Origin: Escherichia phage UoN_LG358_1
Sequence record: OK570374
Direction: 5' to 3' (one strand)
DNA: 64,000 bases
Shown here: one piece after another, positions 1,885 through 53,097 of the stretch
How positions within the stretch are numbered: position 1 is the stretch's first letter
Layout of the letters: every line of letters starts with the position of its first letter
Translations under genes and position numbers: made by a program
Notes under the pieces: model-generated
What the model was told of the DNA's origin: nothing
Seen by the model: the letters and a program-made list of their open reading frames with translations, nothing else
The model's database searches: none

Positions 1885-2244
1885 TTAAAATTCAATTTCG
1901 TTAGCAACAACATCCCAAAGTGCTTCAAGTTGTTCTTCAGTAGCTCTTTTACCAATAGCCCGCCGTAGATAAAGCTTGACCAAAAGAGCCCGATTAGTTT
2001 TCCAAGAAGGATGAGTACTTAAATCGCGCCTGAATATTTCATCATGAAAACCAACCTTTATTTCTGAACCATTGAACTGAACATCTAAAGTTGGACCATT
2101 TTCAAAACTGATGAAAACGTAATTATCTTCCCAGTACATATCAATCTGTGCTACTGTACCGTTGTTATGTTCCCACAATAAAGTGGTAGAAATATCCCAA
2201 TCGTTGTTTTGAACGTATTTACGTCTAAAGTTAGTGAAGTCCAT
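1885..2244 (-). CDS. hypothetical early protein (119 aa)
   Basis: ORF preceded by an early-promoter module. Confidence 0.5.
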   Translation of the reverse strand: MDFTNFRRKYVQNNDWDISTTLLWEHNNGTVAQIDMYWEDNYVFISFENGPTLDVQFNGSEIKVGFHDEIFRRDLSTHPSWKTNRALLVKLYLRRAIGKRATEEQLEALWDVVANEIEF

Positions 2245-2282
2245 GTTATTCTCCGTTATATCTGTTTGTTTATTGAGTTTAT

Positions 2283-2312
2283 ACTATAACACATACAACG
2301 GAGGATGTAAAC
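2283..2312 (-). promoter_or_regulatory. T4-type early promoter (-35 GTTTAC, 18-nt spacer, -10 TATAGT)
   Basis: - strand GTTTAC at 2312..2307 and TATAGT at 2288..2283; member of repeated promoter family. Confidence 0.6.
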
Positions 2313-2314
2313 GG

Positions 2315-2803
2315 TTAGACAAAACTTATTTTGACAGTTTTCTTAGCTTCTAGCTTAAGCTCTGTGATAAAAACACGATAATTATCACTTGGTGCCATAC
2401 GTAGTTCTTCTGCAATTTTCTTGGCTTTTTCTAAAGTAAAGAGGTTCTTTTCATTTTCTTTAAAAACGACTGCACTTCCACATTCAAGAGAGCGAACAAC
2501 CATGAATGTTTCAGGTCCTTCAGTCTCAGATTTAAACTCAATTTTTCCTTGATATACTTCATCAAAATCAAACAGGTTCCAGCCATTCCACTGCGAACCA
2601 CAATCTGCACCATCATAACGACCGCGAAATTGAGCGTCCAAAAATTCTACTTCAGTGATACACTTTCCACCAACGGATACTTTAGTGGCTTTAAGCCAAG
2701 CATTTCCGAACAAACATTTGATTTTGGCGTCAAATGAGTTCAAATCGACATCCCATTTATCAGTCATACGGAATACATCACCAACTTCAAAACATGTTTT
2801 CAT
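2315..2803 (-). CDS. hypothetical early protein (162 aa)
   Basis: ORF preceded by early-promoter module at 2853-2882. Confidence 0.5.
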   Translation of the reverse strand: MKTCFEVGDVFRMTDKWDVDLNSFDAKIKCLFGNAWLKATKVSVGGKCITEVEFLDAQFRGRYDGADCGSQWNGWNLFDFDEVYQGKIEFKSETEGPETFMVVRSLECGSAVVFKENEKNLFTLEKAKKIAEELRMAPSDNYRVFITELKLEAKKTVKISFV

Positions 2804-2852
2804 AATTTCCTCATTAAATTTAAACTAAGGCGGTATTGGTTATTGAGTTTAT

Positions 2853-2882
2853 ACTATAACACACTTTTATGCTGATGTAAAC
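2853..2882 (-). promoter_or_regulatory. T4-type early promoter (GTTTAC-N18-TATAGT)
   Basis: - strand GTTTAC at 2882..2877, TATAGT at 2858..2853. Confidence 0.6.
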
Positions 2883-2894
2883 GGCAGACTTTAG

Positions 2895-2924
2895 AAACAA
2901 AAAAGGGACTCCCGAAGGAGTCCC
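2895..2924 (-). terminator. intrinsic terminator (GGGACUCC-UUCG-GGAGUCCC + U-run on - strand)
   Basis: perfect 8-bp GC-rich stem with UUCG loop followed by U-tract in - strand sense, just downstream of small basic ORF. Confidence 0.6.
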
Positions 2925-2934
2925 TAACATTGCT

Positions 2935-3114
2935 TTATGCTTTCTTACGCGGATTACCAAAAGCAGCATCATGAGCAAGAACTTTACGAGCACGAGATGC
3001 TAGCTGGTCAGCCAATGGATTGATACGAGAGTTAGACCCACGCTTGTAGCCAGCGCGTTTAGAGGTACCAACAACTTCTTTTACTGCGGTTTTTGCTTTA
3101 GATTGCTTAGCCAT
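2935..3114 (-). CDS. small basic protein (59 aa, Lys/Arg-rich)
   Basis: ORF below the 60-aa cutoff of the track, found by reading the - strand: MAKQSKAKTAVKEVVGTSKRAGYKRGSNSRINPLADQLASRARKVLAHDAAFGNPRKKA; own terminator. Confidence 0.45.
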   Translation of the reverse strand: MAKQSKAKTAVKEVVGTSKRAGYKRGSNSRINPLADQLASRARKVLAHDAAFGNPRKKA

Positions 3115-3267
3115 TTTAATATTCCATATTCGGAGTAATACAACGAACTGGTCTTATTGACATTGCCAGTTCTCAAGCCCTCGAAGGGTACTTAGCACTT
3201 TGGTAGCTTACACCCAAGGTTTTGAATTGTTAACGTGGTGATAACCTTGAACGTCCACATCATACAG

Positions 3268-3516
3268 TTACTTCAAAGTAACCACAAAATGACGAACTGC
3301 CTTACGAGCTGAACTGCATAAGCCTTTAGCGAATTTTAATTCGTCTTTTAAAAGAAGAGCATCACGAAAATCAGCTTGCACTGGATTAAGGTGTTTAAAC
3401 CCTTTCAGTACTTCAAGAGCTTCGGCCAATACATCAATTGATGCGCCGTAGTTTTCATGACCTGCATTCCAGGCAGTGCGTTGCAGAGAAAGAGCGTGTT
3501 CAAGTTGTTTGTTCAT
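3268..3516 (-). CDS. rIII-like protein (82 aa), positional assignment
   Basis: 82 aa ORF next to gene 31 where T4 carries rIII; same length as I recall for rIII; sequence identity not verified. Confidence 0.4.
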   Translation of the reverse strand: MNKQLEHALSLQRTAWNAGHENYGASIDVLAEALEVLKGFKHLNPVQADFRDALLLKDELKFAKGLCSSARKAVRHFVVTLK

Positions 3517-3617
3517 TTAAAAAGCCTCAAATGAGGTGAATAAAAGGAAGGCGGTATAAGAAGTTTAATCCCTGCGCCTTCCACCATGTAATCAGAAAGA
3601 TTACAATAATATTTATA

Positions 3618-3941
3618 TCACTTATAAACGCACGCTAACGATTTATAATGACAAGTAACAAATTTTTGTTTAATTTCTTTAGGCTGCTTAATGCCTAACG
3701 CAACCAATGGATGAGTTACATTGCGAATATTACCAACTGGTAGCGGAGTTAAATCACCAACTTCTACGAAGCCAGCGGGTACATCAGCACCAATTGAATA
3801 TACTTCACACATTTCAGGAAGTTGGCCCTGAATTTCTTTACCCAAGAAAATACCCGAATCTGAAATTTTTTCATCACCAGATTGTGCTGGTTCTGATACC
3901 AAAATAACAAATTCGCCTAGAGCTTTAATAGGAAGTTCCAT
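3618..3941 (-). CDS. 31: co-chaperonin GroES homologue gp31
   Basis: 107 aa; ...[18 protein letters not shown]...[39 protein letters not shown] closely matches recalled T4 gp31. Confidence 0.85.
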
Positions 3942-4002
3942 TCTTACAGTTTACCTTGCTTGTTAACATGAATTAATAATAACACGAATTTCTTAAAGCA
4001 AA

Positions 4003-4314
4003 TTACTGAGTAACCAATTGGACCAAATGTTCAGCCTTTACGCCATTAACAGAAATTAGTTTATCAAAACTAAAGGCGCGCCAACCTTCACTTTCCGTGT
4101 CATAAACTGGAAGCATATCAACAGCTTCTTTTCGTTTAACTTGAGATTCTTTGACTAATTCAAAATCACTAGGAAGAATATCTCGGTCACGAGTGCAACG
4201 CATTGAACGAATGGTTCCGTCTGCTTTTTCAAAAACCACCTGAGATTCGCCATTACTCAACACGGCTTTCAGAGTTTCACGAAGTTGTACTTTTTGTTCA
4301 GTTGTAAGTTTCAT
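4003..4314 (-). CDS. hypothetical protein (103 aa)
   Basis: ORF in operon orientation. Confidence 0.45.
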   Translation of the reverse strand: MKLTTEQKVQLRETLKAVLSNGESQVVFEKADGTIRSMRCTRDRDILPSDFELVKESQVKRKEAVDMLPVYDTESEGWRAFSFDKLISVNGVKAEHLVQLVTQ

Positions 4315-4318
4315 TTTA

Positions 4319-4552
4319 TTAACCTATAACAGTTTTAATTTTATGTGCGCCACGAACCTTTAATGCTTCATGAAGTTCTTGACAACGTTTAAGCCGCTCT
4401 TCAATTTTGGCTTTATTATCGATAGATACATAATCAGTTTGATAAAGTACTTTCCATTTAGAAAAGAAGTTTTTCTTATATTCTACTGAGTATCCAATAT
4501 TAACTTTAGCATAAGAACTCAATCCAGTTATTTGTACTAATCGAGTTTTCAT
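4319..4552 (-). CDS. hypothetical protein (77 aa)
   Basis: ORF overlapping cd stop by 4 nt. Confidence 0.4.
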   Translation of the reverse strand: MKTRLVQITGLSSYAKVNIGYSVEYKKNFFSKWKVLYQTDYVSIDNKAKIEERLKRCQELHEALKVRGAHKIKTVIG

Positions 4553-7890: not shown

Positions 7891-8234
7891 CTAGTTGATT
7901 CCTGTAAATCTCTGGCAAATGAATTAAAACTCTCGTTGATTTGTTTTTCGACGAGTCTTGGCTTTGCAGCCACCACGTTGCTTTTCTTCGCGTCTTTATG
8001 CATTTTCGCATTAGAAGTTTCCGTGATTAATCTATTTGAACTACGTTTCTCATCTAAAATTTTTATATTTTTAAAATCTTCTTTGAGTTGGTCAATAGAT
8101 TTGGCCTGCTCATCTGCAACTTCTTTTACTGCATGCAAATCTTCTTTTAACCCTTCTACCCGCTGTGAAAGGTAAAAAATAGAACCTGCAACAACAATTC
8201 CAGCTATTGCTAGCGTTTTTATACTTATTTGCAT
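7887..8234 (-). CDS. small membrane protein
   Basis: hydrophobic segment TLAIAGIVVAGSIFYL; start placed at the internal Met to limit overlap with alc; start uncertain. Confidence 0.4.
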   Translation of the reverse strand: MQISIKTLAIAGIVVAGSIFYLSQRVEGLKEDLHAVKEVADEQAKSIDQLKEDFKNIKILDEKRSSNRLITETSNAKMHKDAKKSNVVAAKPRLVEKQINESFNSFARDLQESTR

Positions 8235-8725
8235 AATTTGACAATTACCTCTACAATATCGTCTTGAGATAATCCATTCCATAAGACGTGATTTGGAGCA
8301 TCTGACTGGGACACTTTAAATCCTTGAATTTCATCTGCCATTTCTGACGAATCCATATACGGATTATGAATACCTAAGCGATGCTTACCATAAATTGGGT
8401 CAACCGTTATATAGCATTTACAATCATTAATAAGCACGTTAGGCTGAGTGATATTAATAATCACTTCTGCTCCATATTTTGTAAGCTGATTTTCAAGAAA
8501 ATTTTTCATTTCTTCAACAGCTTCAGGCATCGCTTCTTGGCGAGCCTCTGTAACTTTATTGTTGTACTCTTTTTGCTTTTTGCGCTTTTTCTGATCCGTG
8601 GCGAATGCCTTTCTGAGGTCAGTTAAGTATCCAACCCGCCGGGAACCTTTGAATACCGAGATACCGTCGTGATGAGTACCATACTTTTCTACTAAAGCTT
8701 CGTTAGTGATAAGTTGTAAGTTCAT
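8225..8725 (-). CDS. alc: Alc-like protein (host transcription shutoff), positional
   Basis: 166 aa ORF between pseT and rnlA as in T4; preceded by early promoter; sequence identity not verified. Confidence 0.5.
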   Translation of the reverse strand: MNLQLITNEALVEKYGTHHDGISVFKGSRRVGYLTDLRKAFATDQKKRKKQKEYNNKVTEARQEAMPEAVEEMKNFLENQLTKYGAEVIINITQPNVLINDCKCYITVDPIYGKHRLGIHNPYMDSSEMADEIQGFKVSQSDAPNHVLWNGLSQDDIVEVIVKLCK

Positions 8726-8755
8726 TGTTAATCTCCGTTTAGTTGGTGTAAGAAC

Positions 8756-8785
8756 ATAGTATCATAACAAAACGGAGATGTAAAC
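8756..8785 (-). promoter_or_regulatory. T4-type early promoter (GTTTAC-N18-TACTAT)
   Basis: - strand GTTTAC 8785..8780, TACTAT 8761..8756. Confidence 0.6.
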
Positions 8786-8789
8786 GGTC

Positions 8790-9920
8790 TTATTCGTATT
8801 CTTTTGGAATGAACGTTTTGTGGTTCTTCATGAACAGTTCATTGACCTTCTTGATAGTTGTATCATAGTCCATGTTGTCATTGAACATCAACATCAAAAT
8901 TGTAAACAAGAACGGTAAACGTTCAGCATCAGCCAGTCTCTTTGCCTCGCCTGCGTATGTTTTACGGTCTAAACCACGAAGTTTTTGATACGACGTAGAG
9001 ATAAACGACAATGAACGGCGCAGATAATCAAGATAAACTTCTTCGAACTTATTAATTTTCTTTAAAGAATAAGCATCGTTAGAAAAAAGTCCTTTGAGGT
9101 CATCAGAAGCGTTATTCACAATAACTTCAAATAGTCTATCATTTTTTGTGATAGAGTCCTTGGTGTGATGTAAAGCTGTGTACCAATCAGTCTTTAACTT
9201 AAATCGAAGACCATTGTCCATCACAAAAACATAACCTTCAATCCCTTCCATTGCTTTAATATCGGATACAAAATCTCCTTCCGGAATTTCATACGACTCT
9301 ACCAAATACTGACGAAGAACAGGGTCTTTAGCGATTTCGTTGTATGGAACATAAGCTCCAGTATCGTTTTCCCGGATATTCAAAAGAATAAGGTCTTTTT
9401 TCTGATAAGCGAGAACAATACGATTTTCAGGAGATACGTATTCAAAGTTAGCTGTAAAACCATCACGAGCTAGTTCAAGAAGTCTCCACAACAACGCTTC
9501 ATGAGTAATGCTAGTAAGCATAGCAGAAGACAAATAAGCTTGTTCAGATTTAAGCGAAGACTTTGATTTAAAGCGAAGAATATTGCCATCCAAATAGCTT
9601 GACACCAAAGAACCATCTTCTTTCTTCATCATATGAACCGCGTTAGAAAGATCGAGGTTCATTGTAAATGGAGTTTCATTTAAATTAAAGAATTTTTCCA
9701 TTGGTCTAGAAGCAATTCTTACTGGTACTCCGTCAATCATTTCAAACATAATGCCTCGACACTCTAAAGCATCTGGAAGCAACCAATCTGAATATGAAGC
9801 ATAGTTATAACTAAAAATTCTGTACTTTAGCCCAGACGGAGAAATATCATCACGATAAAAGAATCGTGATTCGTCCGTATCATTACATAAATTCATCAAA
9901 TTGTTGAATAGCTCTTTCAT
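8790..9920 (-). CDS. rnlA: RNA ligase 1
   Basis: 376 aa; MKELFNNLMNLC...YRIFSYNYASYSDWLLPDALECRGIMFEM...RPMEKFFNLNE matches recalled T4 Rnl1. Confidence 0.85.
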   Translation of the reverse strand: MKELFNNLMNLCNDTDESRFFYRDDISPSGLKYRIFSYNYASYSDWLLPDALECRGIMFEMIDGVPVRIASRPMEKFFNLNETPFTMNLDLSNAVHMMKKEDGSLVSSYLDGNILRFKSKSSLKSEQAYLSSAMLTSITHEALLWRLLELARDGFTANFEYVSPENRIVLAYQKKDLILLNIRENDTGAYVPYNEIAKDPVLRQYLVESYEIPEGDFVSDIKAMEGIEGYVFVMDNGLRFKLKTDWYTALHHTKDSITKNDRLFEVIVNNASDDLKGLFSNDAYSLKKINKFEEVYLDYLRRSLSFISTSYQKLRGLDRKTYAGEAKRLADAERLPFLFTILMLMFNDNMDYDTTIKKVNELFMKNHKTFIPKEYE

Positions 9921-42890: not shown

Positions 42891-42917
42891 CTAAAAAGGG
42901 ACTCCCGAAGGAGTCCC
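42891..42917 (-). terminator. intrinsic terminator (GGGACUCC-UUCG-GGAGUCCC + U-run)
   Basis: same hairpin sequence as at 2905-2924; U-tract in - strand sense. Confidence 0.55.
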
Positions 42918-43112
42918 TGTTATTACCATGTGGCTTTTGACACCATACCTGTAACTTTCTTCAAAGAGTTGTCCGGCTGACGAACACGAATAGTAGCTAT
43001 ATCGCCAGGGAGAGGAAGAGCATCTCCCCACATATAACCGAAACTTCCATCTACAAGCGTTACCCAGATTTGTGACATATACTCTCCTATACGGGCGGAA
43101 TGCCCGTATTAT

Positions 43113-43460: not shown

Positions 43461-43505
43461 AAATATCTCTATTGTGAGGTATATCAATGATTAGCCCGAA
43501 GGCTA
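43461..43505 (-). other. 60: untranslated coding gap of gene 60 (translational bypass), begins with UAG inside a UUCG-capped hairpin
   Basis: mRNA GAU GGU UAG CCUUCGGGCUAAUCAUUGAUAUACCUCACAAUAGAGAUAUUU GGC ACA GGG UCA; near-identical in layout to the T4 gene 60 gap as recalled. Confidence 0.6.
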
Positions 43506-43640
43506 ACCATCAACATCAGCATCAGTCATGATGGCAATGTTTTTATAATTCAAAGAAGAAGTTGATGTACGACGTACAATTGTCTGGGCTTTATATGATT
43601 TCATATCAATTTCAGTTTCTTTAACTTTAGCAAATTTCAT
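43506..43640 (-). CDS. 60: gp60 proximal coding segment (45 codons, ends at take-off codon GGU)
   Basis: MKFAKVKETEIDMKSYKAQTIVRRTSTSSLNYKNIAIMTDADVDG then UAG; resembles recalled T4 gp60 N-terminus including the basic nascent-peptide signal. Confidence 0.65.
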
Positions 43641-53054: not shown

Positions 53055-53082
53055 TCGTTTAAAAGCAAAAAAGGGACTCCCG
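53055..53082 (-). terminator. intrinsic terminator after soc (GGGACUCC-UUCG-GGAGCCCC + U-run)
   Basis: hairpin and U-tract in - strand sense 16 nt after soc stop. Confidence 0.6.
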
Positions 53083-53097
53083 AAGGAGCCCCTGCAA

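Follow-up and report, generated by a model that had tools for sequence, protein, structure and literature searches.

The 64,000-nt stretch of sequence record OK570374 (Escherichia phage UoN_LG358_1), called the window below, encodes on its minus strand at 2935-3114 a small basic open reading frame (ORF) that is, judged by similarity and gene order, an ortholog of T4 gene 30.9 (synonym 31.-2; PHROG 1427, function unknown). The ORF is the last cistron of a 31-rIII-30.9 unit, which ends at a UUCG terminator 10 nt past the 30.9 stop codon. Together with the early promoter behind it, the terminator is a cassette (2853-2925) of the promoter-early stem-loop (PeSL) type, whose anatomy was observed in the window and agrees with that reported for such elements. 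Between rIII and 30.9 lies a spacer that harbors a candidate H-type pseudoknot, which is supported by covariation.

The account favored here is a tentative one, in which, taken as a whole, we place somewhat less than even confidence. The 30.9 ortholog ends the 31-rIII-30.9 unit at a PeSL-type cassette, its product (gp30.9) would be a helical hairpin that binds nucleic acid, and its translation would be set by the leader. The ORF itself is an already catalogued, uncharacterised phage gene, and the finding is real but ordinary. Alone it adds little: the 30.9 family is known, the UUCG hairpin is textbook T4, and the PeSL cassette is published. The features worth experiment are the invariant loop of the protein and the structured, covarying leader, which is the less ordinary part of the locus.

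Identity, conservation, and distribution of gene 30.9

An earlier note on this DNA, made by a model from the letters alone, had described a 59-aa ORF with a hairpin 10 nt past its stop codon. The ORF, its translation, and the hairpin position were all reproduced, and the product, MAKQSKAKTAVKEVVGTSKRAGYKRGSNSRINPLADQLASRARKVLAHDAAFGNPRKKA (59 aa), matches the string given there exactly. The homology search that the note proposed places this product in the T4 30.9 family (PHROG 1427, E 1.9e-29 over residues 1-58; 1049 phage records by tblastn), and no characterised family was matched. The tblastn matches are named 30.9 in T4, T2, IME08, LZ1, and Aeromonas 44RR2.8t. Over a region of about 1.4 kb, the window is 99% identical to Salmonella phage SEA1, and its identity to Melville, STML-198, and S16 is 93-98%; all of these records list the ORF as a hypothetical protein. 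The source of the window is a T4-like Salmonella phage of the genus Gelderlandvirus.

Along the minus strand, a WYL_2-domain gene (T4 31.1 position) is followed by 31, rIII, the ORF, the terminator, a 162-aa ORF of unknown function, and 30.7 (Table 1). The ORF thus takes the position of the 30.9 family, which lies downstream of 31/rIII and upstream of the 30.8-30.7 block on the same strand. An old UniProt entry titled "11.1 kDa protein in Gp30-rIII intergenic region" (97 aa) is N-terminally over-extended; the homologues all begin at the conserved MAK. Several records (OR352945, MZ502380, and the UniRef entry of Klebsiella phage PMBT63) call the 30.9 homologue a "1,4-alpha-glucan (glycogen) branching enzyme, GH-13-type," a name that cannot be correct at a length near 60 aa and that has the look of an annotation error copied from record to record.

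By its mode of evolution the ORF is a real protein-coding gene, as it is under purifying selection, has more than 1000 homologues, and is followed by a terminator at a kept position. The ratio of nonsynonymous to synonymous substitution rates (dN/dS) is 0.07-0.15 in comparisons with close relatives and has a median of 0.33 when 681 pairs are considered, and the comparison with the related locus L024 yields 13.5 synonymous and 3.5 nonsynonymous differences. Phages whose proteins share only about 40% identity still keep the frame, start, and stop, and the MAK(Q) start is conserved among the homologues. This pattern speaks against the explanation that the ORF is not translated and that its conservation stems from RNA structure or regulatory DNA. 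Such an explanation can draw on the weak Shine-Dalgarno (SD) sequence, which can be paired in a hairpin, and on the gp30.9 protein of T4, which is not classified in the time-resolved proteome (supplement of PMC9697503, the companion data set of PMC9409239). T4 gp30.9 yields just one tryptic peptide of at least six residues, however, which explains the proteomic miss and makes the absence weak evidence. We regard an untranslated ORF as very improbable. In the window protein, the peptides INPLADQLASR and VLAHDAAFGNPR would be diagnostic of translation. For a virion protein, at which the earlier note had hinted, nothing was found in support, and the homologous T4 mRNA is classed as early (PMC9697503 supplement).

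Across 38 diverse members of the family, R20, Y23, K24, R25, and N28 are invariant, and G22 and R30 are nearly so. The core motif is R20-x-x-Y23-K24-R25-x-x-N28-x-R30. The Lys/Ala-rich N-terminus and the C-terminal helix are variable, and the C-terminal half occurs in at least four sequence types with a dN/dS of 0.5-0.7 between them.

The family falls into three groups, which are the Tevenvirinae, the Aeromonas Biquartavirus phages, and uncultured phages with contigs of 179-307 kb. In the Aeromonas Biquartavirus phages rIII is absent, and 30.9 starts 30-47 nt after gene 31. In the uncultured large phages, 30.9 has its own promoter and terminator and is located between tail-collar-fibre genes and genes for HMG-CoA reductase, UbiA, and PEP-utilising proteins. 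The latter neighbors suggested cellular homologues, a possibility that was rejected. Genes next to 30.9 on these contigs match the tail-collar-fibre PHROG 523, most other genes there have no Pfam match, and no relative was confirmed among 100,044 bacterial and archaeal species (one genome each, GTDB representatives), so that the distant members are large phages and not cells. The 30.9 family therefore appears to be phage-restricted. Ranging from T4 to Aeromonas phages and unrelated large phages, 30.9 is among the most widely conserved T4 genes without a known function, and its five-residue motif and predicted scaffold make it a tractable experimental target.

Terminator, PeSL-type cassette, and putative promoters

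The core of the terminator hairpin, GGGACTCC-TTCG-GGAGTCCC at 2924-2905, starts exactly 10 nt past the ORF stop. With its closing A-U pair the hairpin reads AGGGACUCC-UUCG-GGAGUCCCU (2925-2904), comprises nine pairs of which six are G-C, and has a predicted energy of about -17 to -21 kcal/mol. It is followed by TTTTTTGTTT (U-run UUUUUUGUUU). The element thus has the build of a predicted intrinsic terminator: it lies past a stop codon and, on the strand that is transcribed, shows a GC-rich hairpin with a U-run directly behind it. All 11 phages examined, the most distant included, carry a GC hairpin with a U-run 4-25 nt past the 30.9 stop. Their stems differ (GGGACUCC/GGAGUCCC, GGGACUC/GAGUCCC, GGGAACC/GGUUCCC, GGGAGAC/GUCUCCC, and AAGCCCUC/GAGGGCUU), and the kept position combined with compensatory stem change is good evidence that the predicted element is functional. 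A scan of the minus strand from gene 31 to the ORF detected no other terminator-like site; hence, the hairpin closes the whole 31-rIII-30.9 unit and not the ORF alone. The small gene and the intrinsic terminator of the earlier note are both real, while its description of the terminator as the ORF's own is imprecise.

The 20-mer of the hairpin occurs in three copies in the window within two mismatches, two of them exact and one with a single change, and was found 0 times in 100 dinucleotide-preserving shuffles. The recurrence was correctly described before as exact at 42898-42917 and with one change in the third copy, whose coordinates (given as 53063-53082) are shifted by 10 nt to 53073-53092. 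Copy 3 is followed by TGCTTTTA...TATAAT, a middle-promoter-like motif. In copy 2 the next ATG is reached 24 nt past the hairpin, and no promoter-like element is apparent by eye in these 24 nt, to which the promoter scan was not applied. About 10 UUCG hairpins with stems of at least five pairs are present in the window. A separate, unusually long hairpin at 43481-43516 (minus strand) forms 16 pairs, with G.U allowed, around a UUCG loop and lacks a U-run; it matches the pseudoknot covariance model described below weakly (17 bits, E 0.017), probably just for being a hairpin.

The early promoter lies 23 nt downstream of the terminator. In T4 and other phages, GTTTACA...TAnnnT likewise follows the 30.9 terminator. 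Composites of the PeSL type insulate T4 early units and serve as recombination points. In the descriptions of Arbiol et al. 2010 (PMC2839356) and Comeau et al. 2014 (PMC4122927), PeSLs are near-identical copies scattered through T4-type genomes, where they mediate the shuffling of modules. The two further hairpin copies in the window are explained by this recurrence of PeSL cassettes, and hairpin recurrence is a known property of T4-type genomes that is not tied to 30.9. Dispersal was assessed on the 20-nt hairpin copies alone (0 or 1 mismatch).

The flank of the cassette varies between phages. The 162-aa ORF that occupies the T4 30.8 slot in the window has no Pfam match and is unrelated to 30.8. 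In Melville (locus L001, 2030-2392), an extra 120-aa gene is inserted between the PeSL cassette and the 162-aa ORF, at a point that corresponds to about 2804-2850 of the window. The gene is missing from both the window and SEA1, and the indel directly adjoins the cassette. The indel and the unrelated ORF in the 30.8 slot are in keeping with a role of PeSLs in recombination, with Melville being a single case.

Transcription of the 31-rIII-30.9 unit would start at promoters that precede gene 31 and rIII. By their agreement with consensus, MotA-like elements before gene 31 may act as a middle promoter, and TATAAATA, directly after the gene 31 stop, may act as a T4 late promoter (Table 1). T4 rIII has early, middle, and late promoters (PMC9409239), and the same paper cites a study on the expression of rIII and 30.9 in vivo (Driukas and Nivinskas 2003, Biologija). 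The ribosome-binding site (RBS) of rIII (3530-3545, minus strand) is itself contained in a small hairpin, CACCUC-AUUU-GAGGCU, in which the GAGG Shine-Dalgarno sequence is paired directly before the rIII ATG.

The rIII-30.9 leader

T4-type genomes leave little room between genes. Even so, 120-416 nt separate rIII from 30.9 in every rIII-carrying (Tevenvirinae-type) locus examined, with 153 nt here and 244 nt in T4. This spacer, which is commonly taken to be empty, is a mosaic of conserved modules, the order of which varies by phage.

The best supported of these is module D, the candidate H-type pseudoknot. Stem S1 pairs GUGG (3258-3255) with CCAC (3238-3235), stem S2 pairs UUCAAGGUU (3251-3243, inside the S1 loop) with AACCUUGGG (3221-3213), and both are joined by a conserved A-rich linker, CGUUAA..CAAA. 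Module D is found in 33 of 33 distinct spacers, which were collected by its own CGT(T/A)AA core. In S1, all of the 22 sequences can form the outer three pairs, which come in five types (GUG/CAC, GAC/GUC, GUC/GAC, GGC/GCC, and GUU/AAC), and S2 changes as a block (UUGUUGGUU/AACCAACGG, UUGGUAGUU/AACUACCAA, or UUGUGAG/CUCACAA). For the whole structure, 83.5% of the alignment cells are paired, compared to 32-50% in controls with slid 3' partners. The structure scores 0.441 for covariation versus 0.05-0.18 in the slid controls, and none of 500 shuffles reaches 0.441. Frequent G.U pairs point to an RNA of the sense strand. Searched with a covariance model, the window yields one strong copy of module D (63 bits), and the Aeromonas and distant large phages yield no copy.

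Known RNA families and a coding origin were considered for the leader and rejected. Rfam has no match with E <= 1 on window 2000-4500, gives only chance-level hits (at most 15 bits versus gathering scores of 42-51) with E <= 10 on 3100-3290 (191 nt), and finds nothing on the modules of seven related loci. No match to a preQ1-type riboswitch, a ribosomal-protein leader, or another Rfam family thus emerged. A small ORF starting from the conserved AUGAUG inside the pseudoknot was also dismissed: T4 and IME08 carry compensating indels that preserve S1 and shift the reading frame, so module D is not coding.

Between the pseudoknot and the start codon, the leader contains module C, the hairpins H2 and H3, and the translation-initiation region (Table 1). 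Covariation in these elements, including the SD hairpin, was judged by eye only. H2 occurs once in the window, where 0.02-0.03 copies are expected by chance, and it follows directly after the rIII stop in loci L023, L025-L027, and L032. Its single occurrence led to the rejection of H2 as a repeated operator, and no further copies of the leader modules are scattered through the rest of the window. H3 is represented in T4 by GCAGG/CCUGC with a near-identical loop and in other phages by GGGAGC/GCUCCC or GAGAG/CUCUC with other loops. The weak SD (GGA, 3125-3123) can pair with UCC (3134-3132) in a small hairpin, and equivalents in other phages, identified by eye, are CCUC/GAGG, UCCAA/UUGGA, and UUUUC/GAGAA. 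With low certainty, the synthesis of gp30.9 would be set at translation by this structured leader, comprising the pseudoknot D, C, H2, H3, and the SD hairpin.

Many T4-like phages carry a further element of 135 nt in the rIII-30.9 spacer, module A (ACGGCAAGUGCAUGCUACC...GCUAACGGUGUGCAACAGAUAAGAG), which is missing from the window and from T4. It is present at 434-568 of L005 (Klebsiella phage KPV15) and in L006, L009, L013, L022, L027, L032, L038, L041, L042, and others. RNAalifold predicts a multi-helix fold with 38 pairs, 18 of which show compensatory double changes, and a covarying loop-loop pairing (GAUGG/CCAUC, UAUGG/CCAUA, or AAUGA/UCAUU) is seen by eye. Without a match in Rfam, module A resembles a structured RNA that has not been described before and that some phages carry and others lack. 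Two independent T4-like contigs, L084 (about 8100-8800) and L090 (reverse strand, about 2130-2830), hold a second full T4-type spacer (C, B, D, H2, H3, and RBS) in a tRNA gene cluster. Behind this second spacer stands an ATG fused to the final 27 rIII codons and then "tttattggagatt," a sequence found both where the spacer begins and at the 5' end of a tRNA gene. The copy looks like a circularised rIII-3'/spacer fragment inserted by recombination at this 13-mer.

A bolder interpretation of the leader, to which we give a small probability, takes one of two forms. By analogy to autogenous control of the gene 32 or ribosomal-protein-operon kind, the invariant loop of gp30.9 might recognise the pseudoknot or H2/H3 of its own leader, the two forming a regulatory pair of T-even-type phages that has not been described so far; or the leader modules, module A included, might represent cis-regulatory or stable phage RNAs of a new class, sensing a protein or small molecule. 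If the modules are regulatory or stable RNAs, they would be new elements of post-transcriptional control in a model phage.

Table 1. Features of the 30.9 locus and copies of its terminator hairpin in the window.
Feature	Position	Strand	Basis and remarks
Small basic ORF (CDS, 59 aa), 30.9	2935..3114	minus	ATG start; TAA stop 2937-2935
Intrinsic terminator, 9-bp stem, C(UUCG)G tetraloop	2897..2925 (hairpin 2925-2904, U-run 2903-2897)	minus	sequence, folding
Terminator copy 2, exact	42897..42918 (20-mer 42898-42917)	minus	after stop codon, before U-run
Terminator copy 3 (GGGGCUCC...GGAGUCCC), one A->G change giving one G.U pair	53072..53093 (20-mer 53073-53092)	minus	after stop codon, before U-run
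Sigma-70/T4-early-type promoter, TTTACA-17-TATAGT with extended TG	2853..2881	minus	10/12 match, promoter scan
Leader module D, candidate H-type pseudoknot	3208..3265	minus	covariation
Leader module C, small hairpin AGC-UACCAAAGU-GCU	3192..3212	minus	by eye; stem variants CAC/GUG (T4), CGC/GCG, UGC/GCA
Leader hairpin H2, GUA-CCC-UUCGA-GGG-CUUG, conserved flanks	3174..3191	minus	by eye; variants CCUC/GAGG, GCC/GGC
Leader hairpin H3, GAACUGG - 14-nt loop CAAUGUCAAUAAGA - CCAGUUC	3145..3172	minus	by eye
Translation-initiation region, weak SD GGAA (3125-3122) 8-11 nt before ATG	3115..3144	minus	sequence
rIII (lysis-inhibition accessory protein, 82 aa), cistron upstream of ORF	3268..3516	minus	annotation of near-identical phages
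Late-promoter consensus TATAAATA	3610..3617	minus	directly after gene 31 stop, upstream of rIII
Gene 31 (GroES-like head-assembly co-chaperonin, 107 aa), first cistron of unit	3618..3941	minus	annotation of related phages
MotA-box-like TGCTTTA and TATTAT 12 nt downstream, before gene 31	4000-3994 and 3981-3976	minus	sequence
162-aa ORF in T4 30.8 slot, after PeSL cassette	2315-2803	minus	hypothetical in related phages
30.7	1885-2244	minus	Pfam PF06919, E 3e-54

Function of gp30.9 and comparison with known systems

The window protein has a mass of 6.3 kDa, an isoelectric point (pI) of 11.5, and a net charge of +12, and it contains no Cys, no Trp, and no hydrophobic segment. AlphaFold2 predicts helices at 6-22 and 33-52 with the invariant motif in the connecting loop (single sequence, predicted local distance difference test (pLDDT) of 72). 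The structure prediction and the search of representative sequences described below were run on the window protein alone. In the favored account, gp30.9 would be made in infected cells from the early period on and fold as a helical hairpin, with the invariant R-x-x-Y-K-R-x-x-N-x-R loop forming its modeled tip. With low certainty, it would bind nucleic acid in the infected cell, RNA being more likely than DNA. Nucleic-acid binding, which the earlier note had also suggested, is plausible from the composition (pI 11.5, +12) only; the composition was borne out, whereas a link to a known binding domain did not emerge from any sequence or fold search. Pfam gave 0 matches for the window protein and each of 38 relatives (E <= 10), NCBIfam gave 0, and a Foldseek search of the predicted model against the PDB gave 0 as well. 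The family profile found nothing below E 0.1 among PDB sequences, the best hit being a nonsignificant helix of SlmA (E 0.1). The literature searched assigns no function to 30.9.

The sharp division of the protein into a fixed loop and free helices lends itself to a second explanation, which is possible and is given a lower probability than the favored account as a whole: gp30.9 may be a protein-binding plug, whose RxxYKRxxNxR loop enters a conserved host or phage protein and inhibits or redirects it. The target may be the active site of an enzyme, a defence sensor, or the transcription or translation machinery, and the charge would be incidental or mimic nucleic acid. Five residues are absolutely invariant within an 11-residue loop while both helices vary freely, with at least four C-terminal types and a dN/dS of 0.5-0.7 between these types. 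The distant large phages carry 30.9 as a self-contained, moron-like unit with its own promoter and terminator, and the early class of the T4 RNA fits genes for host take-over or counter-defence. The plug is weakened by the fact that no partner can be named, that the searches revealed no similarity to known inhibitors, and that the sole lead to a protein motif, the BRCA2 BRC repeat, failed. Protein binding of this kind is nearly as likely as nucleic-acid binding, and the two explanations that follow are lesser rivals.

The BRC lead (PF00634; RecA/UvsX binding, the repeat being a binder of RecA-family recombinases) arose from a phmmer search of 1.84 billion representatives, in which two BRCA2-like proteins scored E 6e-14 and 2e-10. 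These values are sums over 13-15 repeats with per-repeat scores of about -3 to 8.5 bits, and a Calx-beta repeat protein scores higher still for the same reason. Alignment of the family with BRC repeats by hhalign yields a probability of 2.7%, Pfam has no match, and family members carry G, A, S, T, K, E, or N where FxxA has its "A." With this short basic query, long tandem-repeat proteins (Calx-beta, BRCA2, and an unnamed 617-aa protein) dominate the whole-sequence E-values of phmmer; their 10-15 sub-threshold repeat matches sum to E as low as 5e-18, and per-domain scores are needed.

The basic N-terminus suggests another function, namely that of a histone-H1-like or nucleoid-associated DNA binder, which would coat or compact the DNA of host or phage nonspecifically through the Lys/Ala-rich N-terminus and a basic helix. 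The N-terminus is of the AKxAK type (MAKQSKAKTAVKE; MAKQAKAKKAVEKK in T4), the net charge is +12 to +14, and the pI is above 11. Nonspecific coating, however, needs no invariant loop with Tyr and Asn, and the N-terminal Lys/Ala stretch is the least conserved part, almost gone in some members (P0107 and P0108). Searches of Pfam and the PDB revealed no similarity to the HU, H-NS, or H1 families, and we consider this function improbable.

The size, charge, and Tyr/Arg/Asn-rich motif of gp30.9 are typical of rRNA-contacting peptides and were counted in favor of a ribosome-associated factor, which would dock on rRNA, for example near the mRNA channel, and bias translation toward phage messages. The neighboring RIII binds ribosomal protein S1 (PMC9409239). 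Against this, the family profile finds no ribosomal or rescue factor among all PDB chains, save for a nonsignificant match to eukaryotic RPL29 (E 5.8), and Pfam finds none. A ribosomal role is about as doubtful as the coating of DNA. Resemblances to bL34, RMF, and the tails of rescue factors were likewise dropped, as the family profile found nothing alike in PDB sequences or Pfam. GTSKRAGYKR of gp30.9 may resemble "GTAKSRYKAR" of phi21 N, a lambdoid N-type peptide, a class in which a short basic helix with a stacking aromatic residue binds one specific RNA hairpin; the same profile searches found no such peptide.

Several observations weigh against the favored account of a nucleic-acid-binding gp30.9 under leader control. 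Pfam, NCBIfam, PDB sequences, and Foldseek provide no link to a characterised nucleic-acid-binding family, and the structure model stems from a single sequence, with a pLDDT of 72 that falls to 58 in the loop. Equally well, a short, strictly invariant loop carried by helices could be a protein-binding motif, as in an inhibitor of a host enzyme or of a defence system. The protein is unclassified in the T4 proteome, though its tryptic peptides are few. The minimum free energy of the leader is no better than that of shuffled sequence (z = -0.13), so that covariation alone makes the case for leader structure. The leader modules furthermore track rIII and not 30.9, and Aeromonas phages without rIII have no pseudoknot; the leader may hence serve rIII or the mRNA as a whole.

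Known systems resemble parts of the locus to different degrees. The likeness to BRCA2 BRC repeats does not go below the surface: G-[YF]-K-x-G ... helix ... F can be aligned with repeats of the Plasmodium type. Autogenously regulated T4 mRNAs with structured leaders include gene 32 with its pseudoknot operator, the RBS-sequestering hairpins of e, soc, and 49, and the 26-25 junction. In common with these mRNAs, the 30.9 leader combines a covarying candidate H-type pseudoknot with a hairpin that can pair the SD, both in the 5' untranslated region ahead of a small and possibly nucleic-acid-binding protein. It differs in that its sequence has no similarity to the gene 32 operator, in that the pseudoknot is 95-150 nt away from the start codon, and in that the placement of modules varies between phages.

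The terminator and its cassette have closer counterparts. C(UUCG)G tetraloop hairpins were reportedly described in T4 intercistronic regions by Tuerk and colleagues in 1988, and the hairpin studied here has the same GC-rich stem closed by C(UUCG)G without a difference of substance, being of the standard type. Like PeSLs, the cassette consists of a stem-loop terminator followed by an early promoter, lies amid genes of a variable region, and is repeated near-identically; it differs in that only copy 1 (2853-2925) shows the full pair of terminator and early promoter.

The closest relative is T4 gp30.9 itself (UniProt P17310; MAKQAKAKKAVEKKVGDSKRAGYKRGSNSRINQTVEKIMRRARAVLRDDASRFGKQKA). In T4, the leader between rIII and 30.9 is 244 nt long and includes module B, compared to 153 nt without module B here, and the gene after the cassette is 30.8 instead of the 162-aa ORF. 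The C-terminal helix is of another sequence type (PLADQLASRARKVLAHDAAFGNPRKKA versus QTVEKIMRRARAVLRDDASRFGKQKA). The two proteins (58 aa in T4 and 59 aa here) are otherwise about 61% identical overall with an identical core, SKRAGYKRGSNSRIN, and they are encoded at the same position after rIII, with a UUCG terminator 5-10 nt past the stop codon and an early promoter behind it in both phages.

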